Shown here piece by piece: positions 14,099-27,568 of a stretch of DNA of 64,000 nt. The DNA lies in contig OY969763.1 in NCBI GenBank assembly GCA_963702845.1, forward strand, positions 160,001 to 224,000, in the 5' to 3' direction. Below the pieces are notes generated by a model, which saw only the letters and a list, made by a program, of their open reading frames with translations, had not been told where the DNA came from and searched no databases. The translations under genes were made by a program, and so were the position numbers. This DNA comes from an uncultured Verrucomicrobiae bacterium. GTDB taxonomy: Bacteria > Verrucomicrobiota > Verrucomicrobiia > Limisphaerales > Palsa-1400. Every line of letters begins with the position of its first letter. Positions within the stretch are counted from its first letter, which is position 1.

Positions 14099-14910
14099 TG
14101 CGGCCCTTTCTCGGACGGCGCAGCGGGACCGTCCCCGCCTTCTTCGGTGACGCGGAAGAATACGTCCTCGAGATTTGCGCCCTCGGGCAGTTCGGAAAAG
14201 CGTGCGCGCACTTCGGCCAGACTGCCGTCCACGATTTTACGTCCGTTTTTCAGAATGAGGACGTGTGAGCAGACTTCCTCGAGCAAGTGGAGCAGGTGAG
14301 AGCTGATCAAGATCGCCGCGCCTTCGCGAGCGCGTTTCAGGATCGAATCTTTCATGCGACGAATGCCGATTGGGTCGAGACCGGTCAACGGTTCGTCGAA
14401 GAAAATGACCTGGGGCGCGTGCAGCAGGCCACAGGCGATCATGAGTTTCTGTTTCATGCCGCGCGACAATTCCGACGGCAGCTTGTCGCGTTTGTCAGCG
14501 ATCTCGAGTTCTTCGAGCAAGGTGAGCGCGAGCGGTTCATAATTGCGCACGTTGTAAATGCGCGCGGTGAAAGCGAGATGTTGGTTGACGGTCAAGTAAT
14601 CGAACAGGCGCGGTTCGTCGGAGAAAAAGGACAAACGCTTTTTCGCTTCGATAGGTTGGGTGGCCATGTCGAAGCCGCAAATGCGAATGGAGCCGCGCGA
14701 TGGCGGAATGATGCCCGCAAGACAGCGCATGGTGGTGGTTTTGCCCGCGCCGTTCGGGCCGACCAAGCCGATGACCTGGCCTGGTCGCACGAAAAACGAC
14801 AGGTCGGTGACTGCGGGAAAGTTGCCGTAGAGTTTGGTCAAACCATCCGCGGAAATTAATGCATCCTGGACAGGCGGGATATGTGACAGCACCGGCGGCA
14901 ATGTTTCCAT
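14095..14910 (-). CDS. ABC transporter ATP-binding protein
   Basis: GPNGAGKTT, LSRGMKQK, DEPLTGLD and SSH motifs; likely ATG start at 14910. Confidence 0.93.
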   Translation of the reverse strand: METLPPVLSHIPPVQDALISADGLTKLYGNFPAVTDLSFFVRPGQVIGLVGPNGAGKTTTMRCLAGIIPPSRGSIRICGFDMATQPIEAKKRLSFFSDEPRLFDYLTVNQHLAFTARIYNVRNYEPLALTLLEELEIADKRDKLPSELSRGMKQKLMIACGLLHAPQVIFFDEPLTGLDPIGIRRMKDSILKRAREGAAILISSHLLHLLEEVCSHVLILKNGRKIVDGSLAEVRARFSELPEGANLEDVFFRVTEEGGDGPAAPSEKGPQ

Positions 14911-15111
14911 GGCGCGGAGGGTAGCAATGGCGCGGTGAGTGGGGGAGTATAAAAAGGCGGCGTGTTTGTAAGTCGGTGAGTCTGTAAGGCGGTAAGTCGG
15001 ATCATAATCTATCTGTTTGGGCGCACCTCGACGGATTACCTTTTGCAACGGGCGCCCCGTTTGTGTTGACCAGGCGAACCCAGATGCATTCGGTGTATTT
15101 GTGAAAGCAAA

Positions 15112-15160
15112 GCAGCGCAGATGACAGGCGCGCAACTGGCTTTGTCTTTAAGCAGCGTTG
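15112..15160 (+). repeat. ~50 bp direct repeat, left copy (partner 23551-23600)
   Basis: GCAGCGCAGATGACAGGCGCGCAACTG is identical over 27 bp in both copies, and both end in CAGCGTTG. Confidence 0.9.
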
Positions 15161-15196
15161 GAATTACTGAGAGCGGACGCCAACGGCCCGGCTGTT

Positions 15197-15583
15197 TCAT
15201 TGTGAGTCTCGCTCTGACACCCACCGCTTCATGTGCCCGTCCAGCTCGGTAAACAGGGCTGGCAGCTTGGTGAATTGCTCCTGCGTGAACGCCTCGGTGC
15301 CAAAGCCAGGAAGTCTCCGACTGCAAAAACCGTAGAACTCTTCCGCGCATCGCTTGCAAAGCGCCCACAGCTTTGGATTGCCAGATAACTTTGCAGACAA
15401 ATCGGGAGCGCTGCAGTCGGGAGCGCCACCACAGTAATGGCAACCAGCCGGCAATACGGAGACCGAGCCGGGGTTCACCTCTTCAGAACACTGGACGCAA
15501 AGATCTGCCGTCGTGACGTTATCTCCGACGATTGTCGTGATGTGAACCGTCGCCTCCCGTTGATTGCATTTCGCGCAAAGCAT
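15197..15583 (-). CDS. Cassette protein with McsA-like N-terminal CxxC motifs
   Basis: 'MLCAKCNQREATVHITT...DLCVQC' plus CHYC and CKRC; start placed just after the attC core. Confidence 0.65.
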   Translation of the reverse strand: MLCAKCNQREATVHITTIVGDNVTTADLCVQCSEEVNPGSVSVLPAGCHYCGGAPDCSAPDLSAKLSGNPKLWALCKRCAEEFYGFCSRRLPGFGTEAFTQEQFTKLPALFTELDGHMKRWVSERDSQ

Positions 15584-15592
15584 AACGACTGT

Positions 15593-15691
15593 GGTTAACG
15601 AAAAAAACTGAGCCACGCCGGGCAACTGACGTCAGCCGCGAAAGCGGAGCTGCCAACGCCAACCGGCGTTGGCTCAAGCGTCTGGTTAAGC
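15593..15691 (-). other. attC site
   Basis: Minus strand GCTTAAC-cagacgcTTGAGCC...GGCTCAG-tttttttc-GTTAACC with long internal dyad symmetry. Confidence 0.92.
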
Positions 15692-15979
15692 TGCATGCGG
15701 CCTCCGCTCGGATGAGCCACGAAGAGCGCGACGAATACCAAGGACAAACAATCCAAAGGCGATAAGGACTACAGCTGAAATCAAGACGTCAGGGACGCGC
15801 CCGTACCCGCCACCAAAAAACCATAACGTGCTACTTTTAACGTGAGCGAATCCGTAATCGGAACCGCGGATGGTTACCGTAGCGTATCCCTGAAATCGCC
15901 CCAGCCAATACCGGCATGAAACGCCAAAGAATCCCGCTCCAACCAAGAGGAGTAGCCACTTAGATTGTTTCGGATTCAT
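15686..15979 (-). CDS. Cassette membrane protein, hypothetical
   Basis: Two hydrophobic segments; TAA stop overlaps the attC inverse core. Confidence 0.75.
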   Translation of the reverse strand: MNPKQSKWLLLLVGAGFFGVSCRYWLGRFQGYATVTIRGSDYGFAHVKSSTLWFFGGGYGRVPDVLISAVVLIAFGLFVLGIRRALRGSSERRPHAA

Positions 15980-15990
15980 ATCTTGTTCAG

Positions 15991-16083
15991 CAATAACCCC
16001 AAAGCTCAGCGGCGACGGGCCACTGACTCGAGGATTGTAAACGCAGCGTCGAACCGCCGTCCGCCGAAGCGCTATTGTTAGCC
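15991..16083 (-). other. attC site
   Basis: Minus strand GGCTAAC...CTTCGGCGGACGG...CCGTCGCCGCTGAG...GTTATTG. Confidence 0.88.
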
Positions 16084-16120
16084 TTTGTCTTCACGTTTGG
16101 AAACTTGCGCTACGATGCTG

Positions 16121-16642
16121 TCACTTCGCCCGCTCCGCCGCCCTCATATCCGCCTCCGCAATCTTCTCAACATAAAACTGCCCTCGCGCCTTCAGCTTGG
16201 TCGCCCACGATTCCCTGTCGCCGCCTCCACTACGGACATAACAATCGTAACCTAACACTGCTGCATACTGATCTTCCGTCTGCTCCATATTCCGCTCGCA
16301 CCATTTCAAAACCGCTGGCCGATACTTGTCATTGATATGCCTTGAAAACTCCGTCGCCAGCGAAAGATCAAAATCGTTCTTTTCCGAATCTGCGGCCACA
16401 ACTAACTTCTGCCAATCCGCATCCGTCGGCTGCCGGCCCGCCTCCAACGCCTCAAATGCCCGATTCCTCGCCTCGACATTCTCAATTATCCAGCCCTGCT
16501 TTTGGGCAATGGCCTGTAACATCCGCTCGCTTGGATGCGAAAAATCCGACCTCTGACCCGAAGTCTCCTGCACCTGCTTGCCACAACCAATCAATAGCCC
16601 CGCCACTATCGCCGCAACAATTGGAACCATGCGAAATTTCAT
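16121..16642 (-). CDS. Cassette lipoprotein, hypothetical
   Basis: Lipobox 'LLIGC'; lies between two attC sites. Confidence 0.75.
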   Translation of the reverse strand: MKFRMVPIVAAIVAGLLIGCGKQVQETSGQRSDFSHPSERMLQAIAQKQGWIIENVEARNRAFEALEAGRQPTDADWQKLVVAADSEKNDFDLSLATEFSRHINDKYRPAVLKWCERNMEQTEDQYAAVLGYDCYVRSGGGDRESWATKLKARGQFYVEKIAEADMRAAERAK

Positions 16643-16655
16643 AAAATCTGGATGC

Positions 16656-16754
16656 TGCTAACGTCCAGAGCTCAGGCACGCGGGACCAAAAACCGTGAAC
16701 CGCGAAGCGGAGCTGAGAGCGCCATCCCGCGTTGCCTGCAGAGATTTGTTAGAT
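16656..16754 (-). other. attC site
   Basis: Minus strand ATCTAAC-aaatctCTGCAGGCAACGCGGGA...TCCCGCGTGCCTGAG-ctctggac-GTTAGCA. Confidence 0.92.
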
Positions 16755-16982
16755 CTCTGGTTCATGTCTCCTCAACTCTCGAAGCAAACGCACCTCACTC
16801 GATCCGTCCTCATACTCGACGAGATACTTCTGCTCTGGATGCGGGGCTTCCGGTGAAATAACCGAAGCGACAGCTCCGCGTCTCGCTCCTCCAATAACTG
16901 TCACCATATCGTTGACCACGAGCGGCAACGCCTCACTTCTTTTGCCTTCGTAAAATGCTTGGCGCATGGCTTCAGTAATCAT
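16749..16982 (-). CDS. Cassette small protein, possibly KOW/SH3-like
   Basis: 77 aa; stop overlaps the attC; 'NDMVTVIGGARRG...YLVEYEDGS'. Confidence 0.65.
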   Translation of the reverse strand: MITEAMRQAFYEGKRSEALPLVVNDMVTVIGGARRGAVASVISPEAPHPEQKYLVEYEDGSSEVRLLRELRRHEPEI

Positions 16983-16992
16983 GTCCGGTGAG

Positions 16993-17188
16993 GTCTAACT
17001 ATGATTATGCGACACACTGTCGCAGTAATTTCGATATGCGAACGGTTGGTTCATATTGGTTGAGCAGACTATTGTTCTGCTGCCGCTGCGAAGCAAGCGC
17101 AACTGGGCGCGCTCGCGAGCACGGCGACGACATGCCGGAGATCCGCGATTGGAAGTGGAGCGCGTAGGGAAAGGGCAGAGCAGTTTAA
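16993..17188. repeat. Repeated module copy 1: attI-like site (minus) plus phosphoketolase-like 3' end (plus, 17114-17167)
   Basis: Near-identical to 17644-17856, 18302-18476 and 20486-20660. Minus end reads CGCATAA-TCATA-GTTAGAC; plus frame reads REHGDDMPEIRDWKWSA*. Confidence 0.9.
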
Positions 17189-17274
17189 CGCCCCGGGTCA
17201 GGCAGGCCGGGGCAAAGGTGTTCGATTGCAAACAGAGACGCGATCCCGGCCTTGCCTGCAGCGACTTGCTAGGG
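17183..17274 (-). other. attC site with variant inverse core (CCCTAGC)
   Basis: Minus strand CCCTAGC-aagtcgCTGCAGGCAAGGCCGGG...CCCGGCCTGCCTGAC...GTTAAAC. Confidence 0.85.
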
Positions 17275-17640
17275 TGCATTTGTGATGTTGATAGATACAA
17301 TGTTGATGCCATTGCTTTGAATATGTGCTGCCTGCAATAAACCGTCTCTCCATGCTCCATCCGGTCTAAATCGCTTCGGCTTAATGTCCAGACCTAGACT
17401 GCATCCGCGTGACAATGGGAAAAAATGAGACCAACCAAAACTGTCTCCAGCGCTTAGGCCGTCCTTAAAACCGTGATGCACTAAATATTTCGTCGCGTCA
17501 TCTTCTCGCATCCCAAAGGTCAGTTTCGATGCGATCTTAACCGCCTGTGCTTGGGTGAACTGGTTTGTCGCCGTCTGCGCTTCTGTGAGGTTCGTAAAAG
17601 CGAGAAGCACTAAACAACATATTGCTGAAATCGTTCTCAT
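17269..17640 (-). CDS. Cassette secreted protein, hypothetical
   Basis: Signal peptide ending 'TEA'; stop overlaps the attC inverse core. Confidence 0.75.
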   Translation of the reverse strand: MRTISAICCLVLLAFTNLTEAQTATNQFTQAQAVKIASKLTFGMREDDATKYLVHHGFKDGLSAGDSFGWSHFFPLSRGCSLGLDIKPKRFRPDGAWRDGLLQAAHIQSNGINIVSINITNAP

Positions 17641-17643
17641 GCA

Positions 17644-17856
17644 CCCTAACTATGCTTACGCGACGGGGTGTCGCGGTGATTTTGATATACGAACGGTTGG
17701 TTCATATTGATTGAGGAGACTATTGTTCTGCGGTCGCTGCGAATCAAGCGCAACAAAACGCGCTTGACCTCACCTTGGGCCTTTGAGCACGGCGACGACA
17801 TGCCGGAGATCCGCGATAGGAAATGGAGTGCGTAGGGAAAGGGCGAAGCAGTTTAA
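17644..17856. repeat. Repeated module copy 2 (with a short insertion near 17765-17784)
   Basis: Aligns with copy 1; core GTTAGGG; plus frame EHGDDMPEIRDRKWSA* at 17785-17835. Confidence 0.9.
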
Positions 17857-17949
17857 CGAAAAAAGCTGAGCCACCGCCGACTCGTGGCGTGAACCGTGAT
17901 AGCGGAACGGACAGCGCCAACGGCGGCTGGCTCCGGCGATTTGTTAGAC
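17851..17949 (-). other. attC site
   Basis: Minus strand GTCTAAC-aaatcgCCGGAGCCAGCCGCCG...CGGCGGTGGCTCAG-cttttttc-GTTAAAC. Confidence 0.92.
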
Positions 17950-17955
17950 TCGTGG

Positions 17956-18297
17956 CTACTTCTTTGGAACACCAACTCCATATACCTCCAGAATCCCACC
18001 TTCGCCGCCAGTTTTAAGTATCAAGTAACCGCCTGTCTGCTCTGACCTCCATATATCGTATTCCACAATATCCAATCCGGTGGGATGGGGCACCCGATAC
18101 TTCTCAAAGGTCGCCAGCTTCTCAATCTCTGACAGGTCTTGATAATGTAATTTCTGGAGGCCGCTGGTATGCGACACGGATGACGCAGTGAAACGCTCAT
18201 CAAGAATCTTCTGCATCTCCTTCGAAGGCTTGGCATCGGCCGCATAGGCGAACATTCCGCATAAAAGAACAACGACAAAACAGGTGAGAGGTTTCAT
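17956..18297 (-). CDS. Cassette secreted protein, hypothetical
   Basis: Signal peptide ending 'AYA'; bounded by GTTAGAC and GTCTAAC. Confidence 0.75.
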   Translation of the reverse strand: MKPLTCFVVVLLCGMFAYAADAKPSKEMQKILDERFTASSVSHTSGLQKLHYQDLSEIEKLATFEKYRVPHPTGLDIVEYDIWRSEQTGGYLILKTGGEGGILEVYGVGVPKK

Positions 18298-18301
18298 ACG
18301 A

Positions 18302-18476
18302 GTCTAACTATGATTATGCGACGGGGTGCCGCGGTAATTTTGATATACGAACGGTTGGTTCATATTGGTTGAGGAGACTATTGTTCTGCGGCCGCTGCGA
18401 ATCAAGCGCAACAAAACGCGCTCGCGAGCACGGCGACGACATGCCGGAAATCCGCGATTGGAAATGGAGTGCGTAA
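18302..18476. repeat. Repeated module copy 3
   Basis: Aligns with copy 1; core GTTAGAC; plus frame REHGDDMPEIRDWKWSA* at 18423-18476 with a TAA stop. Confidence 0.9.
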
Positions 18477-18494
18477 GGGGGAATTAGTCGGTCC

Positions 18495-18983
18495 TTACTT
18501 TCGATTTGCGTCTAGGCGGAAGGGTTGGCTTCCGTACGCTGGACCGCTTGGTTCGCCCGTCTTCGGATCTTTTTTGATGACAAGAGAAACATAATATTTG
18601 TCGGTTGGACGGATTGGATATGAATGGACACCCCACGCGTCCTTCAAATCGTCCACCCATAAACCAAAACCTTCAGCCCCGCCATGAAACTCAATTACCA
18701 TGTGGTCGGAATGCACATACACGCCAACCGGTTTTAATTCGACAATAGATAGCGGCAAGTTTGTTAGACCACTCCCCTTATAATAAATTTCATTTGTCGG
18801 CGACCGGCTAATCACGCAACTCGCACTGCGGATGATTTCCGCGCAGTCCACGGTTCTCAGAACCTTGTGGAAGTGCCACTGCTTGGGCAGGGAATACCAG
18901 AGCCCGCTTACTGTGAGAATACCTGTCAGGACCACACAAAGTCCGAGAAAAATGCCGAGTGGAATTTTTACGATGTTTTTCAC
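18495..18983 (-). CDS. Cassette membrane-anchored protein reading into a truncated attC
   Basis: N-terminal TM segment; the last ~20 codons start at GGCGAACcaagcggtccagcg, which resembles an attC left arm. Confidence 0.65.
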   Translation of the reverse strand: MKNIVKIPLGIFLGLCVVLTGILTVSGLWYSLPKQWHFHKVLRTVDCAEIIRSASCVISRSPTNEIYYKGSGLTNLPLSIVELKPVGVYVHSDHMVIEFHGGAEGFGLWVDDLKDAWGVHSYPIRPTDKYYVSLVIKKDPKTGEPSGPAYGSQPFRLDANRK

Positions 18984-18993
18984 GGAGACTTTG

Positions 18994-19058
18994 GCCTACC
19001 AATTTATCTGCGACAACTGTTCGCATAGTTTTAATCGGCGAACAAGGGTTTTTGGGGT
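18994..19058 (-). other. attI-like site, second subtype (core GGTAGGC)
   Basis: Homologous to 23451-23515 (AAACCCTTGTTCGC..ATTAAAA...TGCGAAC); also aligns with the attI-like end of the repeated module. Confidence 0.6.
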
Positions 19059-19128
19059 TGTCCTAAAAGCTGTCAAACGGGGACTGGGGTATGTGGTTGC
19101 TGATGGCTGCAGCGCTTGGTTAGACGTC

Positions 19129-19437
19129 TTACGAGTAATGTGCGGTAATGCCAGCATAAGTCAGTGTGACGAAGAACGCGATAAAGACTCCAGCCTCAAC
19201 CCATATTCTCGTCCGAAGCGTTTTCTTGCGAACGATGAAACGAGCAACGGTAGCGGTGATAAAATAAACACACGCTGCTACAAAGCCAATAACCATGAAG
19301 CCGATGATAAATCCAAACTCCTGCTGTCCGTCTCCAGGATACTGCTCTCCCCACTGTAAGTGGGAGAACGGCAAAGCGACGGCAACGCCGACCGTTAGCA
19401 GAACCCGAAGTAGCGCAAGCAAGACGTGGCGTTTCAT
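19129..19437 (-). CDS. Cassette membrane protein, hypothetical
   Basis: Three hydrophobic segments; followed by a half attC (GTCTAACcaagcgctgcagcc, 19104-19125). Confidence 0.72.
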   Translation of the reverse strand: MKRHVLLALLRVLLTVGVAVALPFSHLQWGEQYPGDGQQEFGFIIGFMVIGFVAACVYFITATVARFIVRKKTLRTRIWVEAGVFIAFFVTLTYAGITAHYS

Positions 19438-19456
19438 GGTGAGATGCGCGAATGAC

Positions 19457-19507
19457 ACCTAACAGTTGAGCTCGGGAGGTTTCACACAGGCTCGCGATTT
19501 GTTAGGC
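19457..19507 (-). other. Short or internally deleted attC
   Basis: GCCTAAC...GTTAGGT spanning only 51 bp, with weak dyad symmetry. Confidence 0.6.
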
Positions 19508-19925
19508 CAAGATTGTTGCATGTGCGGAGTCTGCCTGAACTACGACAATGGCGCCGGACATGAACTCGATGGCATTCAAAGCAAGCGGTTGAGCAGTCAT
19601 CCTCTCGTCGCAAATCATTAGGGAACCCTCTCCAGTCCTCGTCCGTCCAGTAGCCGAAATTACGCAAGCAATCGTCCTCAGTGAACGGAAGCCCAGAACG
19701 ACGAGGCAGAAACCGAAACTCGGTAACGCCTGAAAACTCGATCGTAGATGACGCTGGCAGACTGTTACGGACGCCCTCGCGCTCAGAACGTCGCCACAGC
19801 AACAACAGAGTCCGCTGGGCCACTGAGTAACGCAATTCTTGGAAGTCATAGTCATTGTGGAGATCAAGTTCGTGTGGCGGTTGAACAAGATAGATTCCCA
19901 TGTTGACTGTGAAATTGCGGCGCAT
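19502..19925 (-). CDS. Cassette protein, hypothetical; apparent frameshift near 19630
   Basis: The 5' part lies in ORF 19482..19925 and the 3' part in ORF 19502..19888, whose TAA overlaps the attC inverse core. Confidence 0.65.
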
Positions 19926-19934
19926 GGCAGTTGG

Positions 19935-20060
19935 CTCTAACGATCAAGCTCAGCCACAGCCGGGAAACTGCAGCAACGACTGCAGGTCTGACAATCTAAT
20001 TTCATATCCCGATCCAAAACAAGGTGGCCTACGGCTGGTGGCTGAAGCGCCTTGTTAAGC
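19935..20060 (-). other. attC site
   Basis: Minus strand GCTTAAC-aaggcgCTTCAGCCACCAGCCG...CGGCTGTGGCTGAG-cttgatc-GTTAGAG. Confidence 0.9.
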
Positions 20061-20408
20061 GCTTCGCCTCTTTGTCCTGCGCCGCCCAACGCCGCGTGAC
20101 CCCCCTAATGCCGGGGCAATCTGTTTGTACGCGTATACTATGAGGCCGCCAATGATAAAAGGACTTACCCCCTCAACTGCCAACTTTACGTGTGCTTGGG
20201 AAAGGGAGCCTCGCTCCTTTTCGTAAACCTCCTTCCACTTGTCTCTGTATTCCTTGTGATACCTGGTCTCGGTAGCAATTTCTTGAAATGCAACGGAGTA
20301 AAGTCCGGCGGTCACAAGCAGAGGTACGACCGCCAGACATATCAAGGTAAGGAATCCTAAGAAAGCTCCATAAACGCCAGAGCGCCCAAAGAAAAAAATG
20401 AGAATCAT
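20055..20408 (-). CDS. Cassette membrane protein, hypothetical
   Basis: TM segments; stop overlaps the attC; start uncertain (ATG at 20408 chosen). Confidence 0.65.
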   Translation of the reverse strand: MILIFFFGRSGVYGAFLGFLTLICLAVVPLLVTAGLYSVAFQEIATETRYHKEYRDKWKEVYEKERGSLSQAHVKLAVEGVSPFIIGGLIVYAYKQIAPALGGSRGVGRRRTKRRSA

Positions 20409-20485
20409 GCAATGCTCCAAACGCGATGCGAAAGTCCTCGCCGCCTCTCCGCATAAATGAACGATTGCGCATTCACAGTGATGGC

Positions 20486-20701
20486 GCCCAACTATGATTA
20501 TGCGACGGGGTGTCGCGGTCATTTTGATATACGAACGGTTGGTTCATATTGGTTGAGGAGATTATTGTTATGCTGGCGCTGCGAAGCAAGCGCAACACAA
20601 CGCGCTCGCGAGCACGGCGACGACATGCTGGAGATTCGCGATTGGAAATGGAGTGCGTAGCGCGGGCATCACCGAGAACAGCGTGCAGGTGACGATTATT
20701 T
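20486..20701. repeat. Repeated module copy 4, with a tail shared with 22889-22929
   Basis: Core GTTGGGC; plus frame REHGDDMLEIRDWKWSA* at 20607-20660. Confidence 0.9.
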
Positions 20702-21064
20702 AAGGGGTGGCTGATCGTTCGGAGAAGCCTCCGATTTGACTGCTTCAGCAGCAACGGAACTGTGTGCATTCAGAACAGGACGGACCAGAAGAACAATGCC
20801 GATGCACCAAGAGATGAGGTCGGCGAAGTACATCAAACGCCGAAACGTCCGGGTGACGATATAGTTTGGATCGCCCATCGGTTGCAGGCTAACGGTGTGG
20901 TCGTAAACCGTATCGATGATACCGAGCACGCACGCAATGGCGATGAAGATGAAAGCTTTATTCCGAGTCCGCTTGAACGCTGGATAAACGTGACATAACA
21001 CGATTGCATCGACAGCGATTGTTAGCACAAGGCTGAGGTGCGACAGGAATCTGAGCCAGATCAT
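20696..21064 (-). CDS. Cassette-like membrane protein, hypothetical
   Basis: Three TM segments; same strand as the rest of the array. Confidence 0.7.
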   Translation of the reverse strand: MIWLRFLSHLSLVLTIAVDAIVLCHVYPAFKRTRNKAFIFIAIACVLGIIDTVYDHTVSLQPMGDPNYIVTRTFRRLMYFADLISWCIGIVLLVRPVLNAHSSVAAEAVKSEASPNDQPPLK

Positions 21065-21144
21065 ATAGTGGTTAGGAGACTATTGTTCTGCTGCCGCTGC
21101 GAATCAAGCGCAACACAACGCGCTTGACCTTGGGCCTTGGGCAC
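21062..21144. repeat. Partial module copy 5 (middle part only)
   Basis: GGAGACTATTGTTCTGCTGCCGCTGCGAATCAAGCGCAAC...CTTGACCTTGGGCCTT matches copy 2; the attI-like end is missing. Confidence 0.85.
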
Positions 21145-21258
21145 AAACGCGGCGTTCCCATGACGCTGTTTGAGTCCCAGTGTTATCATGGGCCGGGAAT
21201 CGGTATCCATGGCCTGGTTTTTTGCAAGGCGGTCGCGCCGGTCGGGTTTTGCGCGCGT

Positions 21259-21370
21259 ATCGTTGAGCCCTCCGCTTTGTCCGTTGTTCCCAACGCTCGC
21301 TCCGTTATCTCCAACGCCGGCTCCGTTGGGTTCAACGCCCACTCCGTTAGCCCCAACGATGCCACCGTTG
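21259..21370. repeat. Degenerate 21-bp tandem repeat, 5-6 units
   Basis: Units TCCGTT-N5-CAACG-N5 at 21280, 21301, 21322 and 21343, with degenerate units at 21259 and 21364. Confidence 0.85.
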
Positions 21371-21373
21371 ACT

Positions 21374-21411
21374 ACTGATAGGAAATTGCTTTTTGACGCT
21401 GGCGCGGTTAA
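21374..21411 (+). repeat. Perfect 38-bp direct repeat (partner 22816-22853)
   Basis: ACTGATAGGAAATTGCTTTTTGACGCTGGCGCGGTTAA at both positions. Confidence 0.95.
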
Positions 21412-21438
21412 GTCTGCCCCTGCTAATCATTTTGTTTT

Positions 21439-22281
21439 CTACTCATCTTGATCATTGATGTACCAATAAAGAAGGAGGTTCGTGACTTCGTTTGCCTTCA
21501 CGCCTGAGTTCTTCTTCCTGATTTCTGAAAATAGCGCGATAAACTTGGCATTGGTGAAAAGAAGCTCGGCCGTGCCGGCCTGAGGTACAACCAGCAAACG
21601 ACCATCAAAGCCTTCGTCCGTTGTCGCGCCGACGGGATGAGCAATCAGCCGCCGATCTTTACCCGCTGATGTTGTCCAATCAGCCGGATGAACAACCCGT
21701 CTCCCGTCTTTTCCCTCGTCCCATATCCAGCCAGGAGGGCAAGCCACACGCCTGCCGTCGCCCCCCTCCTCCCACGACCAACTGTTCGGTCGGATAATTC
21801 GCCTGCTGTCAAATCCGTCCTCCCAGGTCCAACTGACGGGCCGAACGACTCGGCGACCATCTTCTCCCTCGTCCCATGTCCAACTCGCAGGACGAACCAC
21901 ACGCCCATCCAGTCCCTGCTCATAGTCCCAGCTTTTGGGCCGCACCACGACCCTGCCGCCTGGCCCCAGTTCCCAGGTCCAGTCCGCTGGGCACGCGACC
22001 AACCGGCTGTCGAGCCCCTGCTTTAAGTGCCAATTCGTCGGGTAAGCAATCATCCTCAAATCTCCCCCTTGTCCGTTTGTCCATCCTGCCGGCAGTAGAA
22101 CCTTTCGGCCATCCCTGCCTTCGATAACGCCCGGAGCCTTCGCAAACCGGATGCGGACAATTAAACTGGTTGGATCGGAATCGTTCGCAGATTGTGCGTA
22201 AAGAGAGACCGAGGTGAAACAGACCGCGATGAGGACGCGACTGCAATATCTGGCGATACGGCCAATGAGTGTGGGTTTCAT
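21439..22281 (-). CDS. Secreted protein with about ten 17-aa tandem repeats
   Basis: Signal peptide; repeat consensus PxxWxWxEGxDGRxVxx; likely ATG start at 22281. Confidence 0.8.
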   Translation of the reverse strand: MKPTLIGRIARYCSRVLIAVCFTSVSLYAQSANDSDPTSLIVRIRFAKAPGVIEGRDGRKVLLPAGWTNGQGGDLRMIAYPTNWHLKQGLDSRLVACPADWTWELGPGGRVVVRPKSWDYEQGLDGRVVRPASWTWDEGEDGRRVVRPVSWTWEDGFDSRRIIRPNSWSWEEGGDGRRVACPPGWIWDEGKDGRRVVHPADWTTSAGKDRRLIAHPVGATTDEGFDGRLLVVPQAGTAELLFTNAKFIALFSEIRKKNSGVKANEVTNLLLYWYINDQDE

Positions 22282-22455
22282 TTGACTAGTATTTGAATAT
22301 CTGACGAGTGCGGGGCGGGGAAACTTCAAAACTTGTCGGTAGATGACAAACAGTCGCCGCGGCCGATCGCGTGATGAGCTTTAGTTGTTTCCGCGCGCTC
22401 GCCACCCGTAATCCCGACATAAATGTGAACGGGAACCACGGACTCGCACAGACGA

Positions 22456-22512
22456 ACACGGACTTACACGGACTTACACGGACTTACACGGACTTACACG
22501 GACTTACACGGA
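22456..22512. repeat. Perfect 10-bp tandem repeat (ACACGGACTT)x5 plus a partial unit
   Basis: Read directly from the sequence. Confidence 0.95.
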
Positions 22513-22692
22513 GCCGAACGTCGGCATCCAATCGGGCTACCTTCATTCTGTATCTCGGGACGGTGGGCCGCGACGATTTCTGTCAGGAACTGATAAAATT
22601 CAAAAGCCTGAAGTATCCATAACGCTCCGGGCTTTATGTGCGATGGTAAAAAAGTTCTTTTGCCGATTGGGACTGGTGAGAGGTTTGGTTGA

Positions 22693-22815
22693 GTGAGCGC
22701 TGAATCGCATAAGTATAGGCTGAACGCCGTTCTGGCCGCCACTATCCTCGGGTCGAGCATGGTGTTTATCGACTCGACGGTCGTGAATGTCATCCTGCCG
22801 CGGCTTCAATCGGAA
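22693..22815 (+). pseudogene. 5' fragment of a DHA2-type MFS transporter, cut off at the 38-bp repeat
   Basis: 'LAATILGSSMVFIDSTVVNVILPRLQ' is a typical first TM helix of EmrB/QacA-type MFS proteins. Confidence 0.75.
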
Positions 22816-22852
22816 ACTGATAGGAAATTGCTTTTTGACGCTGGCGCGGTTA

Positions 22853-22929
22853 ATGCCGGAGATCCGCGATTGGAAGTGGAGTTCGTAGCGCGGACATCAT
22901 CGAGAACAGCGTGCAGGTGACGATTATTT
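22853..22929. repeat. Partial module copy 6 (phosphoketolase-like 3' end plus tail)
   Basis: Plus frame MPEIRDWKWSS* at 22853-22888; the tail matches 20661-20701. Confidence 0.88.
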
Positions 22930-22990
22930 GAGCGGTGAACGCGATCTACGAACCACCACATCTCCGGTGAAATGTTAGGGTCCGACGAAT

Positions 22991-23445
22991 CTATCGCTGA
23001 TACCAGTGGTGCTTCCTGATGTTTATCACAACCAATTTTCCATTTTCCCTCATCACAGCAATATCAAATGAAAATGTCTTCTTGCCCTTTGCTGTGCCTG
23101 TAAACACCAAGCCCACATTGTTCCGGTCGTCCCTATTTGCCCTGCCGTGGGTGTTCCAAGTGACAACGGTCCCCTTAAACTCGGTGACCACTTGGTCGGC
23201 ATACAAGGAACGCATGGAATCAGTCTGCGTTGCATAGCTAAGTGTGCTAGAATATCTAACATCTTATCAACTTCCCCAGCCTGTGCGTAGCGAACGAACT
23301 CAGTGGCCTTGGCTCGGTAGACCGGCTCCTCACCATAAACAGCGGCCATGCTGAATCTCGCTAGGTCGCGCGGACCACTCACGCAGCCTTGAAACGACAA
23401 CGCAACAACAAGAAACACCGGAAATAATTTTGTGTGTGACTGCAT
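22991..23445 (-). CDS. Cassette lipoprotein, hypothetical; apparent frameshift near 23250
   Basis: Lipobox 'FQGC'; two overlapping ORFs; bounded by GTTAGGA (23451-23457) and CCCTAAC (22974-22980). Confidence 0.65.
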
Positions 23446-23450
23446 AATGG

Positions 23451-23515
23451 TCCTAACAACTAATTCGCGCCAATAGTTCGCACATTTTTAATCCGCGAAC
23501 AAGGGTTTGTAGGTT
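23451..23515 (-). other. attI-like site, second subtype
   Basis: Minus strand CGCGAAT-TAGTT-GTTAGGA directly before a cassette; no attC-type hairpin; homologous to 18994-19058. Confidence 0.7.
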
Positions 23516-23550
23516 CAAGGTTCGAAGTTCCGACGCTTCGGGTGGATTAC

Positions 23551-23600
23551 GCAGCGCAGATGACAGGCGCGCAACTGACTTTCTTATGTAATCAGCGTTG
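23551..23600 (+). repeat. ~50 bp direct repeat, right copy
   Basis: Matches 15112-15160. Confidence 0.9.
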
Positions 23601-23686
23601 CGAAGGCCACTTTCTGATGGAACTGTACGAAGGGCTTCCCTTGGAAAGACTGCGCAAAATCCTAGGTCACACGGAGGATCATTACC

Positions 23687-23992
23687 ATGAATAACAGTGC
23701 ATACTTAGCGGTTCGCCGATATGATGGCGTCACAGATTCTAAAGAGGCGACTCGCCGGATACAGGAAGGATTCATACCGTTGATTAGTAAAATCCCAGGA
23801 TTCATCTCTTACTACTGGGTGGACGAAGGAGACGGTGTGATGGTTTCGGTAAGCGTTTTTACGACTAGAGAAGGAGAGGGAGAATCTAATCGCCTGGCTG
23901 CGGATTTCGTAAAACAACACATCGCTCCCTTGCTCCCGAAGCCTCCCCGGATCACTGCCGGTCAAGTCGTTGCGAGTGCGGCAAAGAAATAG
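23687..23992 (+). CDS. Small ABM-like (dimeric alpha/beta barrel) protein
   Basis: GGAGG RBS; 'FIPLISKIPGFISYYWV...SVSVF'. Confidence 0.7.
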   Translation: MNNSAYLAVRRYDGVTDSKEATRRIQEGFIPLISKIPGFISYYWVDEGDGVMVSVSVFTTREGEGESNRLAADFVKQHIAPLLPKPPRITAGQVVASAAKK

Positions 23993-24276
23993 GTAGTGCT
24001 GGTGGTGCGCCGGTGTGAGAGCCGGCTGCCAGCCACAATTTCTAGAGTGCCGAGCAAAAGTGAGGCTGCTAATGCGCCCACCCAAATCAGGCGCCAGACG
24101 CGGGTATATCTCCAGGCCAGCACCAAACCTGCAACCGCCACAACGAACATCAACCCACAAATCGGCAAGTCTGCTGGTGGAACACTCAGCGAGCCCACGA
24201 CGAGCAGGCATGGCACAAGGTAGCACGCCAACAGAACCGGCAGAAGAAATTGTGTGTAGGAAGGTGGCTTTTTCAT
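23962..24276 (-). CDS. Cassette membrane protein, hypothetical
   Basis: Three TM segments; preceded by a half attC. Confidence 0.65.
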   Translation of the reverse strand: MKKPPSYTQFLLPVLLACYLVPCLLVVGSLSVPPADLPICGLMFVVAVAGLVLAWRYTRVWRLIWVGALAASLLLGTLEIVAGSRLSHRRTTSTTYFFAALATT

Positions 24277-24291
24277 ACGTTATGGAGCGTT

Positions 24292-24353
24292 GCCCAACGT
24301 TTCAGCTCAGCCACAGCCGACTCATGACGTGCACCGCGACAGCGGAACGGACA
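24292..24353 (-). other. Half attC (R' arm only)
   Basis: Closely resembles the corresponding half of the attC at 17851-17949; core GTTGGGC; no inverse core found. Confidence 0.75.
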
Positions 24354-24380
24354 ACCCATTTGGGAGTTTATTACACAACG

Positions 24381-24408
24381 TTGACACGCCGTAGCTTCCC
24401 CTTATAAT
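24381..24408 (+). promoter_or_regulatory. Consensus sigma70-type promoter
   Basis: TTGACA (24381-24386), 16-nt spacer, TATAAT (24403-24408). Confidence 0.75.
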
Positions 24409-24940
24409 CCCTTAAGCCGCCGGTCCTTGCCGGCGCTGGGGATCGTCAAAAATGTGCAACTTTCCCCGGTTCGTTCTTTGAAAACTGCACTAAAAGTGCG
24501 ACTTAATTCCCACCAAAAGTGCAAGAATGTGCGGGAATGTGGGGCAATGTGTGACAATGTGCGACTTTCCCGTGATGTTTTCTTCCGGAGTCAGCATTGC
24601 GAGGCCGACGTTCGGCCTTTGACAAAAGTAGAAGCATTTCCTTCTACAAAGTTTCTCCACTTGGCAACTAATTGCCGGAAGTAGTAGGAAGTTGCAACAT
24701 TTCGATGATATTTTTTGATTCGGCTGCTTAAGCCGCGGACTGATTGTAACGCCAAGACACGGCGCGGCCAAGCCGCAACCGAAGTCGAGGGGTCGAAGGT
24801 CGAAAGTCGAGAGCCAAAAGCGATCCGATAGCCCATTGGAAGAATTTTGCCAAAAATGCTCAACTTTTGCAGATAGCACTGTGAAAAGACGCAGAGACAG
24901 GTTTGGAAAAGGAATGCTGCGAGCAGGCGGCGCTAGATAT

Positions 24941-25726
24941 TTAAAACCACTTTAGGAGTTCGCGGGCGACGAGTTGGTGGCCGGATCGATTTGGGTGGTT
25001 TGATTGGGCCATTAGGTCGGCGAGTGGGGTGCCGGAATCGATTTTGGCACGGAAAGCTTCGAGGCTGTCAGCGAGGCCAACGCCGTATTCTTGAGCGAGG
25101 CGGCGGATTTGTTGGGCGTGTTGGTTTAAGGGATCGTTTGGGTCATTGAGCTGGGAGTTTTTGTCGGGGGTTGGGGTGAGGAGGATTACTTTTATTCCGT
25201 GAGCCTGAGCATCGGTGATCATTTTGCGCCACGCGGCTTCGGCGCGGGTCAAACCGATACCGCGGTCGTTGAGGGCGTAGTCGATGGTGATGAGGCCGGG
25301 GTGGAGGGCGAGGACGTCGTGGTCGAAGCGGGCGGCGCCGGTTTCGGAGTGTTCGCCACCGATGGCAGTGACGATGACGTTGATGACGGCGTGGGGGTAG
25401 CGGTCGGCCAAGGCGCGGTGGAGGAGGTTCGGATAGGCGTCGAAGGTCCGGACTTCGGGCGTTTTGAAGTAGCCGGCCGGGACGCTGTGACCGTGACAGA
25501 TGATGTTGATGGTGTGATTGGTGGGCCAGGATTTGGTTAGTTCGGTTTTGAGCGGTGCTAAATAGGTGTCATGCGCTGAGGTTCGAGGGAGCGAGTCGGG
25601 GCCAAGGCGCGGGTGCGATGAGTGGTCGACAGTCCGACAACCGTTCGCGAACAGGAACAGCCCGAGAATCCAAAACTGGCGTGAGATAGCGTTCAAGTGC
25701 GTTGATTTAATCACGGCCCAGTCCAT
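24941..25726 (-). CDS. SGNH/GDSL hydrolase family lipoprotein
   Basis: 'GHSV' (block I variant), 'GGEHS', 'ALND' and 'NHPN..GH'; lipobox-like 'ANGC'. Confidence 0.85.
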   Translation of the reverse strand: MDWAVIKSTHLNAISRQFWILGLFLFANGCRTVDHSSHPRLGPDSLPRTSAHDTYLAPLKTELTKSWPTNHTINIICHGHSVPAGYFKTPEVRTFDAYPNLLHRALADRYPHAVINVIVTAIGGEHSETGAARFDHDVLALHPGLITIDYALNDRGIGLTRAEAAWRKMITDAQAHGIKVILLTPTPDKNSQLNDPNDPLNQHAQQIRRLAQEYGVGLADSLEAFRAKIDSGTPLADLMAQSNHPNRSGHQLVARELLKWF

Positions 25727-25814
25727 TGTCTACACGGGAGCCGCCGTCGGCAGCCGATAAAATCAGGGCGCAACTGAATTGACCCTGCGGTGTTAAATCG
25801 CATATCATCGTAAT

Positions 25815-26534
25815 ATGCGAATTTCGTCCAAAGGTCGTGTCGGCATTGGGATCGTCGGTCTCCTGGCTGTTGCGGGTCTGGTAGTCTGGTGGGCCCTGCA
25901 ACAAGGTAGATTGCCAACGCTGCCGACGGCGATTACGCAAACATCCAATCCGGGAGCAAATCCTGGGGCCGGTCACGGCACCAACGGCTCAGAAACGCAA
26001 GCGAGCACCAGCGGCACTGCTCAAGATGCACCCGAAGTGGCGGTGGAAGTCGAAACACCGGAAGTTCCTGTGCCGAAAACATGGGAAGATCATCTGGATG
26101 ACATTCTCTTGAGCGACGATAACGAGAATACCAAGGCGGACCAAATTCTGGCCCTGATGCAAACTACGCTACCGGAAAATCAGGAGGAGTTGGCCCAGCA
26201 CCTGGTGAACATGGTGCAGGACGATCATTACGAGGGCACTTCGAATTTGTTGATGAACCTGAACACGCAGACGAATGTCGCGGAGGTTTTGTTGAACGAT
26301 CTTCTGAATCGCAACAACACGCTCAAACTGAACACGCTTCTGCAAATTGTGAAAGTTCCCGAGCATCCGTTGCATGAAAATGCGCGCGAGATGCTGGAGT
26401 TGTTCGTGCAGGAGGATCACGGAAAGAATTACGACGAGTGGGAAAAAGCGGTGGCAGATTGGTTGAAGGAGAATGAGCCGGAACCGCAAGCGCAGGCCCA
26501 GGCGACTGCTCCAGATGCGCCAGCGCCGCAGTAA
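25815..26534 (+). CDS. Membrane-anchored helical hypothetical protein
   Basis: N-terminal TM segment, low-complexity linker, acidic helical domain. Confidence 0.7.
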   Translation: MRISSKGRVGIGIVGLLAVAGLVVWWALQQGRLPTLPTAITQTSNPGANPGAGHGTNGSETQASTSGTAQDAPEVAVEVETPEVPVPKTWEDHLDDILLSDDNENTKADQILALMQTTLPENQEELAQHLVNMVQDDHYEGTSNLLMNLNTQTNVAEVLLNDLLNRNNTLKLNTLLQIVKVPEHPLHENAREMLELFVQEDHGKNYDEWEKAVADWLKENEPEPQAQAQATAPDAPAPQ

Positions 26535-26537
26535 GGA

Positions 26538-27568
26538 AAATGGCGGAAGGGGTGGTTTCTGAACCCTTTTTGCCAGCTTTTGATCAGGGCTGTAAGGTAT
26601 GATTCGCACCCCTTTGCCCGTTCGCATTCGCTCCAGTGAGTTTGTTACCGGGCATCGCCATAGGGGTGCGTGACCGTAAATGAGCCCATATTCTTCGCGC
26701 CGGCGATGGTGGATAGAGACCATGTGCCGCTCAGCGAACCGTTGGTCCGCGATGACGTGAGTTCTACATTATTGTCAGCGTCGTTGGGATTCAGGTTGAT
26801 AGACAGACCCCTTTCATTCACAAAGCCGCGGAATGTTCCACTCTGAATTGAGTTTGTCGGGAACGATGCCTTCGCCGAGATCAGCTGCCAGCGGCCTACA
26901 AATGCCTGGCCATGCGCCGGCAACGGATCTGGAAGTTGCAGTTTGCCAGTGGCAACGATCTTTCCCGTGTGGTCACGAAACTCCAGTTTACCGCCTGCGT
27001 TTGTTGCCCCGCGAGGATCGCTTCTTCCGTGGCTGCTGCGTGGCAAGGCATTGGTGCGTATTTCGTCCCACAGCGCAGGGCTGTAGGGTCGCACGTCTTT
27101 TACTGGAGCGTCCTCACTTGGGTAAGAGAGAGCAAAGGATTCCTGGCCCAGTTGATTGGTTCCCGTCCCTTCGAGAAAGGTGATGTAATCCTTGCCGGTC
27201 TCGAACGCCGGGTCCGAGTGTAACCTGGTGCTGAAGTAAACGCAGATTCTCCCCCTTCTCGAGGGCCCTTTTAGCGTCTCCTTCACGACGCAGGTTGCCG
27301 AACATCGAAATGTTAAACCAGCGGTCATAATGGCACTACGCTCGACGCCGGTAACCTGGACATGGGCAACCAGGTCGGCTTGCCGAACGAGGGAAGCCAA
27401 GGAGTTTGTTTCAGCGGCATCGATGGCGAGCGGGCTGCCGAGCAAAGTGAGGCACAAGGCGAGGGATTGATGTTTCATGGTTCCATTTGTAAATCCACGG
27501 CTTACTACGGTAAACTTGCCCTCCTGAAACAACCGGCTTGTATGGCAAACAAATGGCGGAAGGGGTGG
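26538..27568. mobile_element. ~1 kb islet at the tRNA-Ser 3' end
   Basis: AAATGGCGGAAGGGGTGG is duplicated at 26538-26555 and 27551-27568, with further partial similarity (GAACCC). Confidence 0.75.
26645..27478 (-). CDS. Secreted hypothetical protein (islet cargo)
   Basis: Signal peptide from ATG at 27478; the longer ORF-track start overlaps the tRNA. Confidence 0.75.
   Translation of the reverse strand: MKHQSLALCLTLLGSPLAIDAAETNSLASLVRQADLVAHVQVTGVERSAIMTAGLTFRCSATCVVKETLKGPSRRGRICVYFSTRLHSDPAFETGKDYITFLEGTGTNQLGQESFALSYPSEDAPVKDVRPYSPALWDEIRTNALPRSSHGRSDPRGATNAGGKLEFRDHTGKIVATGKLQLPDPLPAHGQAFVGRWQLISAKASFPTNSIQSGTFRGFVNERGLSINLNPNDADNNVELTSSRTNGSLSGTWSLSTIAGAKNMGSFTVTHPYGDAR

Follow-up and report, generated by a model that had tools for sequence, protein, structure and literature searches.

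Copies of an attI-like site joined to the 3' end of a phosphoketolase gene in the integrase-less cassette arrays of a Verrucomicrobiae genome

In the usual account of integrons, one docking site is provided per integrase, and cassettes that lie distant from this site are thought to be silent and to await reshuffling. Sedentary chromosomal integrons can be anchored beside a housekeeping gene, as is the Xanthomonas integron next to ilvD, and the islands found at tRNA and tmRNA genes carry the 3' end of the target gene. Here we describe a repeated module, located in a chromosomal array of gene cassettes, that joins an attI-like (docking) site to the last codons of xfp, the gene for an XFP-family phosphoketolase. 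The DNA is from an uncultured Verrucomicrobiae bacterium (Limisphaerales; Palsa-1400), whose genome is a single contig of 6,027,559 bases (6.03 Mb; OY969763.1 of GenBank assembly GCA_963702845.1). The whole stretch analysed, hereafter the window, comprises the 64,000 nucleotides (nt) at positions 160,001-224,000 of this contig, and coordinates refer to the window unless they are given as genome positions or with the name of another locus.

The closest known counterparts of the module are the unusual delta-attI-type cassettes of mobile integrons, for which excision and insertion by the integrase IntI1 has been shown (Gonzales Machuca et al. 2026, PMC12901181). The same source (PMC12901181) reports 110 cases among 1742 integrons; these are plasmid-borne and carry 14-18 nt of attI (once 244 nt, and once the full 65 bp) behind a resistance open reading frame (ORF). 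Clusters of attC sites without an integron integrase, or CALINs, are described by Cury et al. (2016, PMC4889954), and integrase-driven insertion of cassettes into genomes outside integrons, at attG sites, is likewise reported (bioRxiv 10.1101/2022.09.11.507474; PMC12901181).

The explanation that we favour, and hold to be probable with appreciable room left for others, is that the module is an ORF-less cassette of attI type, i.e., a copy of a docking site together with the tail end of xfp, which spread like a gene cassette through arrays that have no integrase. The segment from 15.2 to 24.4 kb of the window is an integron cassette array on the minus strand; it holds 7 attC sites, and all of its sizeable ORFs lie on that strand. 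A previous reading of the window from its letters (the sequence-only reading) had placed 4 full and 2 partial copies of the module here, and both repeat search and alignment agree with it. The repeat search returned a 170-nt unit in 4 copies starting at 16997, 17648, 18306 and 20490 (mutual identity 73-100%), a partial fifth copy at 21074-21130, and an 85-nt pair at 20625-20709 and 22853-22937 (identity 91%). On the plus strand, the right part of the module translates to REHGDDMPEIRDWKWSA followed by a stop. Since the copies differ from each other by 5-27% and the genome is one contig, they are not an assembly duplication, the sequence-only reading having named an assembly artefact among the findings that would refute it. 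A 151-nt contig from a soil run is identical to 18190-18340 and spans the junction of attI-like core and ORF; that run is possibly the source sample, and the match is hence not independent. Among the public runs, one DNA run matched (0.07 share) and yielded two short contigs, and no RNA run was listed; the large parts of the window without cover in that run carry no information.

Copies 1 and 2, read in the cassette direction, consist of an attC, G↓TTAAAC (the arrow marks the crossover point), a 16-nt spacer, the xfp stub in reverse complement, a short tail, and an attI-like stretch ending in CATAG↓TTAGAC. Behind this core come 5-15 nt, a start codon, an ORF of 77 or 123 amino acids (aa), respectively, and an attC. 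Copies 3 and 4 agree with them in the downstream half; the DNA upstream of their stop codons is different, being an ORF end in copy 3 and, in copy 4, 13 codons from the 3' end of a response-regulator gene. Downstream of all 4 full copies in the window there is one ORF and then an attC. Copies 3, 2 and 1 are consecutive attC-module-ORF-attC units, which bears out the proposal that such units stack in tandem; the accompanying proposal, that each unit carries its own capture site, agrees with the GTTRRRY core in which the attI-like part ends and with the presence of a different ORF behind each copy.

The genome has one intact, resident xfp (803 aa, with the domains XFP_N, XFP and XFP_C), located behind the acetate kinase gene ackA and 2.04 Mb from the window, which itself holds no intact xfp. 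The order at this locus is xfp, TAG, a 16-nt spacer, GTCTAAC, a 91-nt attC, one cassette ORF, the attI-like stretch and a longer tail, past which lie about 300 nt of repeats and then a 206-aa gene without a Pfam match. The modules contain pieces of the resident locus in circularly permuted order, namely attI-like part, tail, xfp stub, TAG, 16 nt, core and attC. It follows from the permuted order that the module joins the far flank (spacer and xfp end) to the near flank (tail and attI-like site).

The outer boundaries of the module are sharp. On the xfp side, 22 stubs extend to the stop codon, and 9 of them keep spacer and core; together with the resident locus, these 9 show 10 different attC continuations (4 of the 10 being attC by the covariance model described below), each of which begins exactly after TAAC↓G. 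Window copies 1 and 2 and 7 further modules, which keep spacer and core, have the full form expected of an attI-type cassette. On the attI side, similarity ends at CATAGTT in 29 of 30 copies, as CATAGTT(A/G/C), and each copy then continues differently, with a start codon 5-15 nt past the core; for 21 of the 30, the model places an attC on the same strand within 1.6 kb. Both boundaries are thus, by their sequences, of the kind made by an integron integrase, which crosses over at G↓TT in the GTTRRRY core that joins cassettes.

The inner joint, between tail and xfp, is heterogeneous. We distinguished at least 7 types, in which xfp is entered 11, 16, 17, 22, 42, 42 and 52 codons before the stop, and this heterogeneity argues for illegitimate recombination and not for an attachment site inside xfp. 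Microhomology of 6-8 nt was observed at 2 of the types, the 42-codon joint lying in a shared CGCAAC and the 22-codon joint in a shared AACACAA, and both of these could be derived from the 52-codon type by deletion between direct repeats. The 16-codon, 17-codon and one of the 42-codon types keep more tail than the 52-codon type does, so that separate events, or a longer ancestor, are needed to explain them. Two further observations concern particular joints. The tail of copy 1 (17097-17113) is CGCAACTGGGCGCGC, a piece of xfp that begins 42 codons ahead of the stop, where other copies have CGCAACAAAACGCGC; this tail appears to be a hybrid or intermediate between joint types. Also, the 17-codon joint creates the palindrome CGTGCTCGCGAGCGCG with a T-rich run behind it (18417-18432 and 20601-20616, minus strand), which a terminator scan flags on the cassette strand.

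We propose the following route to the module, whose layout is a G↓TTAGAC boundary, the 16-nt spacer, the last 11-52 codons of xfp in reverse complement, an attI-like site of 61-115 nt and the CATAG↓TTAG core. All of these pieces are the 2 flanks of a single place in the genome, the docking point that directly follows the resident xfp. Across this docking point, a tandem duplication of short extent, or a circle, would have joined the xfp flank to the tail of the attI-like site through illegitimate, partly microhomology-guided recombination. Using 2 equivalent G↓TT crossovers, an integron integrase may then have cut out the piece and placed it at attC sites in arrays genome-wide, and each inserted copy would have been a further docking site that took up other cassettes, turning the arrays into chains of attI plus one or a few cassettes. 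Small deletions would later have given rise to further joint types, and intI would since have been lost. The anatomy, the permuted order, the sharp boundaries, the heterogeneous inner joint, the lack of intI and the attC type common to this genome and the integrons of relatives are observed; the duplication and excision route, its dependence on an integrase and the attI activity of the site are what we infer. With the integrase gene lost, the copies seen today are probably fossils.

The identification of the right part as the C-terminus of an XFP phosphoketolase, which the sequence-only reading had made, is confirmed. By blastn, the last 17 codons of the resident xfp are 91-96% identical in DNA to the window copies. 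The genome has one full and 8 partial matches to XFP_C, 7 of the partial ones being over the Pfam cut-off (these are longer stubs outside the window); the 59- and 67-aa module ORFs, which are too short, gave no Pfam match. With the last 420 nt of xfp as blastn query, we found 24 xfp fragments genome-wide besides the resident gene, and 20 of these lie inside cassette arrays far from xfp. The 5' ends of the stubs fall into discrete length classes, counted in codons before the stop. The 17-codon class is the most multiplied, with 11 copies that include window copies 1, 3 and 4; the others are of 16 (copy 2), 11 (copy 6), 21, 22 (2 stubs), 42 (4 stubs), 52 (4 stubs) and 77 codons. The attI-like site, termed type A below, occurs in about 30 copies in the genome, about 20 of them in full modules at roughly eight loci (genome 0.18, 1.60, 1.72-1.73, 2.19, 2.84-2.85, 4.29, 4.31 and 4.83 Mb). 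The joint types are mixed among these loci; for example, genome positions 1722-1731 kb hold 17-, 42- and 52-codon types. Downstream of the resident xfp are one cassette and one attI-like site, and the next modules lie 8.5 and 10.8 kb off, behind ordinary genes. A pair of genes for Mu-like gp27 and a large terminase, and an IS110-family transposase, are situated among these downstream modules (25-2238 and 3404-4555 of L045; genome 2183.0-2187.6 kb).

Within the stubs, we counted 26 distinct variants, of which the 2 commonest are synonymous (AAG>AAA in 13 copies, AGC>AGT in 9). Another 19 are each confined to a single copy, and 14 of these are non-synonymous, as is expected for decaying non-coding DNA. 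The statement in the sequence-only reading that the differences are mostly synonymous is therefore correct for the old, shared changes (AAG/AAA, AGC/AGT) and incorrect for the private ones. The shared synonymous differences are as expected if a working xfp had changed from one copying event to the next, and the private ones look like neutral decay. At codon 8 before the stop (genome about 2198685), the resident xfp has Met (ATG), and the stubs that cover this codon have Ile in 22/22 cases (19 ATC, 3 ATT), as have the xfp genes of 10/10 relatives compared. The resident Met accordingly either arose after all of the copies or is foreign to them all. Identity to the resident xfp is 97-99% for long stubs and 91-96% for the 17-codon class, a spread that would fit several launches over time.

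The left part of the module appears attI-like by its position, by the behaviour of its junction and by a homology that is modest but real. In 3 relatives of the same family, the intI start codon is separated from the first cassette by 49 nt with the sequence TTGGCCA(A/T)TGTAATA(C/T)ACGAACAACCTGTTGTATAT(C/T)AATTGTTAGGC. The 27-nt palindrome of the module, ATATGAACCAACCGTTCGTATATCAA, can be aligned with ATACGAACAACCTGTTGTATATTAA, located in these relatives between the start of intI and the GTTAGGC core; the alignment score of 23 was equalled by 2/2000 and 3/2000 shuffles in two runs. Between palindrome and core, the module has a GC hairpin, GCGAC-N4-GTCGC. An attC-like fold was considered for the left part and rejected on fold z values, which are -0.1 (-0.14) and -1.9 (-1.89) compared with -3.3 for a real attC; such values would be compatible with recombination of the site in double-stranded form, as is typical of attI. 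The usual position of an attI, between intI and the first cassette, does not exist in this genome, which is without intI. In 30 genomes of the family the left part is absent, and the xfp part alone matches. The best match of the type-A profile on an intI locus (L091) has an E value of 0.04 and lies about 600 nt past the 3' end of a broken intI.

The genome has another attI-like family, type B. Its sequence is AAAACCCTTGTTCGC..TTAAAA..ATGCGAACAGTTGTCG.ATATTAATTGTTAGGC, and in the window it occurs on the minus strand at 18995-19056 and 23452-23513. Type B is much closer than type A to the intI-adjacent attI of the relatives, with scores of 40-42 that were reached by 0/2000 shuffles. There are at least 33 copies genome-wide, with a different ORF behind each and with recurrent classes of upstream flank.

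The setting of the modules is an integron cassette array without an integrase. Imperfect palindromes with RYYYAAC ... GTTRRRY ends lie between the array ORFs. The attC covariance model was built from 7 palindromes, 6 in the window and one at the xfp locus; in the window it detects 7 minus-strand sites and none on the plus strand, and the 7 include one (15991..16083) that was not among the building sequences. Genome-wide it returned 44 sites at E values up to 0.01, clustered in the module-bearing regions. As a positive control, the model scores 86-91 bits beside genuine intI in 3 family relatives (L060, L062, L063), which indicates that the array in the window is of the type used in this bacterial family. 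With at least 2 attC sites in one orientation and mostly unannotated short ORFs (0/15 array ORFs pass the Pfam cut-off), the array has the composition of an integron cassette array or CALIN; a complete integron, with intI beside the array, is not present, since the genome has no intI. The best match in the whole genome to the integron integrase model TIGR02249 reaches 85.9 bits against a cut-off of 265 and leaves model positions 182-236, the IntI-specific middle, unmatched, and a whole-genome tblastn search with the IntI of four relatives found only two Xer-like genes of 27-30% identity. The earlier description of the module as non-autonomous is consistent with this. IntI over the cut-off is found in 4 of 31 genomes of the family and in 106 of 301 genomes of the order. 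A tblastn search for an intI remnant in the tail behind the attI-like site (resident locus, window copies 2 and 5) gave no credible match, the best E value being about 1 in a tiny search space, and Rfam models gave no match at E values up to 1 in 14000-27000.

Coordinates of module copies, attC sites and cassette ORFs in the window
Feature	Position	Strand	Remarks
Module copy 1, attI-like part (type A)	16993..17113	-	core GTTAGAC = 16993-16999 on minus strand
Copy 1 xfp stub, last 17 codons + TAG	17114..17167	+	blastn against xfp; tail side holds xfp-like CGCAACTGGGCGCGC
Copy 1 16-nt spacer + TTAAAC	17168..17189	-	spacer and core match those behind resident xfp; cassette boundary G↓TT
Module copy 2, attI-like part, longer native tail (CTTGACCTCACCTTGGGCCTTT)	17644..17784	-	alignment
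Copy 2 xfp stub, 16 codons + TAG; W>R change	17785..17835	+	blastn against xfp
Module copy 3, attI-like part	18302..18422	-	repeat search, alignment
Copy 3 xfp stub, 17 codons + TAA	18423..18476	+	end of ORF 18495-18983 directly after; no spacer or attC
Module copy 4, attI-like part, core GTTGGGC	20486..20606	-	repeat search, alignment
Copy 4 xfp stub, 17 codons + TAG; P>L change	20607..20660	+	blastn against xfp
NarL-type response-regulator gene 3' fragment, 13 codons, directly behind copy 4 stop	20661..20703	+	intact gene at genome 5449.7 kb
Partial copy 5, attI-side part from module position 64 on, with long tail holding CTCCGTT repeats	21065..21373	-	alignment
Partial copy 6, last 11 codons of xfp + TAG	22853..22888	+	5' side joined to 37-bp repeat 22816-22852; response-regulator fragment 22889-22931 behind
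attC	15593..15691	-	86.7 bits
attC	15991..16083	-	41.1 bits; not used to build model
attC closing cassette behind copy 1	16656..16754	-	90.7 bits
attC closing cassette behind copy 2, abutting copy 1	17183..17274	-	74.3 bits
attC closing cassette behind copy 3, abutting copy 2	17851..17949	-	89.7 bits; fold z -3.3
Short attC	19457..19507	-	32.4 bits
attC closing cassette behind copy 4	19935..20060	-	78.4 bits
Cassette ORF, 77 aa, no Pfam match, starts 10 nt after copy 1 core	16749..16982	-	
Cassette ORF behind copy 2, 123 aa, no Pfam match	17269..17640	-	
Cassette ORF behind copy 3, 113 aa, no Pfam match	17956..18297	-	

Some other features of the array are recorded here. The tandem repeat CACGGACTTA occurs five times at 22450-22505, and a stretch of AATGTG-type repeats (24470-24575) lies upstream of the first half-attC (about 24290-24375). 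The head of the array is without intI, and the gene that follows, at 24941-25726, is for a GDSL lipase. A 37-bp repeat, ACTGATAGGAAATTGCTTTTTGACGCTGGCGCGGTTA, is present at 21374-21410 and 22816-22852, where it brackets a 1.4-kb segment with a 296-aa ORF and a tandem repeat. This repeat has 16 copies in the genome and a razor-sharp right edge, beyond which several copies continue as AGGGAGAATTGC and others as unrelated DNA. The 13-codon 3' fragment of a NarL-type response-regulator gene lies behind the xfp stop in copies 4 and 6 and also at genome 1731.4 kb; the intact gene (228 aa, Response_reg and GerE; position given as genome 5449.64-5450.32 Mb) ends 11 nt before the 77-codon stub. Two larger pieces of the resident locus (L032 and neighbours; positions given as genome 5448.2-5449.6 and 5708.9-5709.9 Mb) are partial copies of the entire locus: an xfp stub and the spacer, then a cassette other than the resident one, the attI-like site with its tail and the repeats, and the start of the 206-aa gene (22-33 codons).

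Fragments of xfp were also observed in relatives. A sister species (G015) has 2 degraded stubs, at 4013-4058 of L068 (G015:C250) and at 1207-1230 of L069 (G015:C570), each directly behind the 3' end or a 3' fragment of a membrane-protein gene (...KPAVQFV, stop) and followed by a core-like TAAC and a reverse ORF. Both start at the same CGAGCACGGC as the 17-codon class, and both carry the allele of the present genome, REHGD(D), and not AEHGE(D)/AEHGED of their own species, which suggests transfer between species. In another genus (G001), an isolated xfp fragment, MPEIRNWKW, lies outside any xfp gene at about 3400-3440 of L070 (G001:C44) and starts at the same ATGCCGGA as window copy 6.

Several observations weigh against the cassette-like origin that we favour. 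Spacer and core are missing from 13 of the 22 stubs, in which the upstream boundary is at the stop codon; their similarity ends 0-6 nt past the stop, other DNA follows, and they do not have the form of an attI-type cassette. The picture of 2 crossovers hence fits less than half of the copies, and a second process is needed, be it the loss of DNA by deletion or a secondary crossover located at the stop codon itself. The base right after the stop is C in 12 of 14 cases, giving in reverse complement G↓TTACGC or G↓CTACGC; with a near-core such as this, a secondary integrase crossover at the stop codon is possible. The different flanks past the stop were also considered as a sign that the stubs derive from different xfp alleles, an idea that was rejected, for one sublineage of the left part (GATTATTGTTATGCTGG) carries four such flanks. 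The likeness to attI extends over 27 nt only, the distance from palindrome to core is about 26 nt as compared with 5 nt in the relatives, and a profile of the relatives' attI reaches type A only at an E value of about 6, as compared with 0.003 for type B. At 36 intI loci of the order, the type-A profile found no site upstream of intI, where attI lies; a 19-mer of the site gave 2 stray matches in 185,579 species genomes (an alphaproteobacterial metagenome-assembled genome and a Vibrio), about 4 being estimated by chance; and two 22-23-nt patterns of the site gave 0 matches in metagenome contigs. These searches yielded no genome with the site next to an intI. Finally, the proposed route does not explain the junction at which copy 6 abuts the 37-bp repeat, nor the chaining of xfp and response-regulator stubs in both orders, and each of the 2 larger pieces of the resident locus (5449 and 5709 kb) begins and ends within a gene, so that these pieces cannot have been moved by integrase crossovers.

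Observations of this last type are those expected if there were no site-specific mobility at all, i.e., if the left part were a conserved cassette leader or promoter and the modules had arisen by segmental duplication, homologous exchange and deletions, maybe with the help of another fragment-collecting system marked by the 37-bp repeat. The mid-gene-cut pieces, the razor-edged repeat (16 copies) beside copy 6, the response-regulator fragments chained to stubs, the absence of the core from 13/22 stubs and the weak resemblance of type A to the relatives' attI are all in its favour. However, ten different attC sites meet the spacer and stub side at one identical base, the GTT of the opposite side leads into 29 different downstream sequences, and the modules sit only in attC arrays. 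Since breaks at cores on both sides are not expected from random duplication, we regard this explanation as unlikely, albeit deserving of some weight. A further idea, that the module is kept for a function of its own, as a portable promoter or terminator for the next cassette or as a source of antisense RNA against the xfp 3' end, would account for its constant position 5-15 nt upstream of a start codon, for the palindrome and T-rich run of the 17-codon joint (a terminator is flagged in 2 of the 4 window copies) and for the multiplication of the 17-codon type to 11 copies. Yet a scan of the module flagged no sigma-70-like promoter on its cassette strand, the Rfam search of 14000-27000 gave no match, and the stubs decay like neutral DNA; we consider such a function improbable as the explanation, and it is compatible with a mobile origin rather than a rival to it.

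The explanation originally offered by the sequence-only reading was a non-autonomous integrative element that targets xfp and stacks in tandem; in full form, such an element would have an attachment site inside the xfp 3' end and bring a replacement 3' end in the manner of tRNA-gene islands. The stubs are indeed discrete 3'-terminal pieces, their most frequent differences are synonymous (AAG/AAA and AGC/AGT, as counted above), the similarity of 13/22 ends within 6 nt of the stop, and the stub in the other genus begins at the same position as copy 6. Against this, the location of 20/24 stubs in arrays away from xfp contradicts the claim that the element targets this gene, behind which there is no stack of units, only the one cassette and one attI-like site. 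The sharp common boundary does not lie inside xfp; it is the G↓TT core 16 nt past the stop, where TTAGAC, 16 nt and stop are combined with ten attC continuations, and the attI-side joint is irregular, with stub starts that vary from 11 to 77 codons. The geometry offers no route by which each copy could once have been a working 3' end, and the stubs are better described as copies taken from the working gene; the private changes, 14 of 19 being non-synonymous, likewise speak against such a history. No tyrosine recombinase linked to the resident xfp locus was found, and the search for attC in the xfp flanks of relatives, where cassette units had been predicted to adjoin the gene, was negative in all cases (0/11 by the attC model). 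The module does not qualify as a site-specific element targeting xfp, which would be recognized by bounding direct repeats of the 3' end, a crossover in the target, a recombinase of its own or linked to it, and location at xfp. By position and boundaries this explanation is already largely refuted, and we consider it highly improbable.

There is also a more active version of the cassette-like origin, in which the attI-like copies are portable docking sites of a working 'distributed integron', served in trans by an integrase from a phage, a plasmid or the DNA of a neighbouring cell, or by a recombinase of this genome other than IntI. Such sites would make of any attC array a set of separate units, each able to capture and express cassettes. 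We think it doubtful that the copies are used in this way. If they were, the xfp stub would be a natural barcode for when, and from which xfp-adjacent allele, each docking site was launched, and it would also trace transfer between species, given the stubs of the present allele in G015.

We return to the origin of the module as an attI-type cassette, and to what it would mean. The docking site itself has turned into cargo, and its dozens of copies chop the arrays into units of attI plus 1-3 cassettes. The xfp stub reveals where the copies came from, a docking point beside xfp, and that they were made by joining the 2 flanks of this point; it also indicates that the joining occurred repeatedly, or once with deletions thereafter. 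If the copies are active with an integrase of the family, they would provide a natural route to CALINs and to arrays with multiple points of entry, a simple experimental system in which to study attI x attC and attI x attI recombination beyond the clinical classes, and a possible reason for continued expression of cassettes located deep in an array. In the literature searched, we found no link of integrons or attI with phosphoketolase (PMC8527097 has all three words, in separate sections) and no account of a chromosomal array in which complete attI sites are present in many copies. What the window adds is the origin of the multiplied attI-like sites, as read from the xfp stub and the circular permutation.

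The comparison with described systems is as follows. The docking point shares with the Xanthomonas integron at ilvD a position directly beside a conserved metabolic gene, here xfp; it differs in that the 3' end of the anchor gene has itself been copied into the arrays, that the integrase is gone, and that the position beside xfp is found in 0/11 relatives. Repeated 3'-terminal stubs of a single gene beside mobile DNA recall the tRNA and tmRNA islands, in contrast to which we see no crossover inside the gene, no linked integrase, and many stub lengths away from the gene. The definition of CALINs is not known to include an attI, whereas attI-like sites are interspersed here every one to three cassettes. 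Otherwise, the arrays resemble CALINs (PMC4889954) in being attC-bounded cassette arrays without a neighbouring intI, several per genome. An insertion of the attG kind would account for the presence of a cassette immediately after the stop of xfp, and it may also underlie the second breakpoint, G↓TTACGC or G↓CTACGC; unlike attG sites, the resident site has a full attI-like partner beside the cassette. The delta-attI-type cassettes remain the closest known system. As in these (PMC12901181), the downstream site of the module is derived from attI and not from attC, and the architecture is attC-X-attI between ordinary cassettes. The module differs in that the whole attI-like site (61-115 nt) is kept, that the cargo is not a gene but the flank of a docking point, including the stub of chromosomal xfp, and that, with no integrase in the genome, a single chromosome carries dozens of copies, about 30 of type A and at least 33 of type B.

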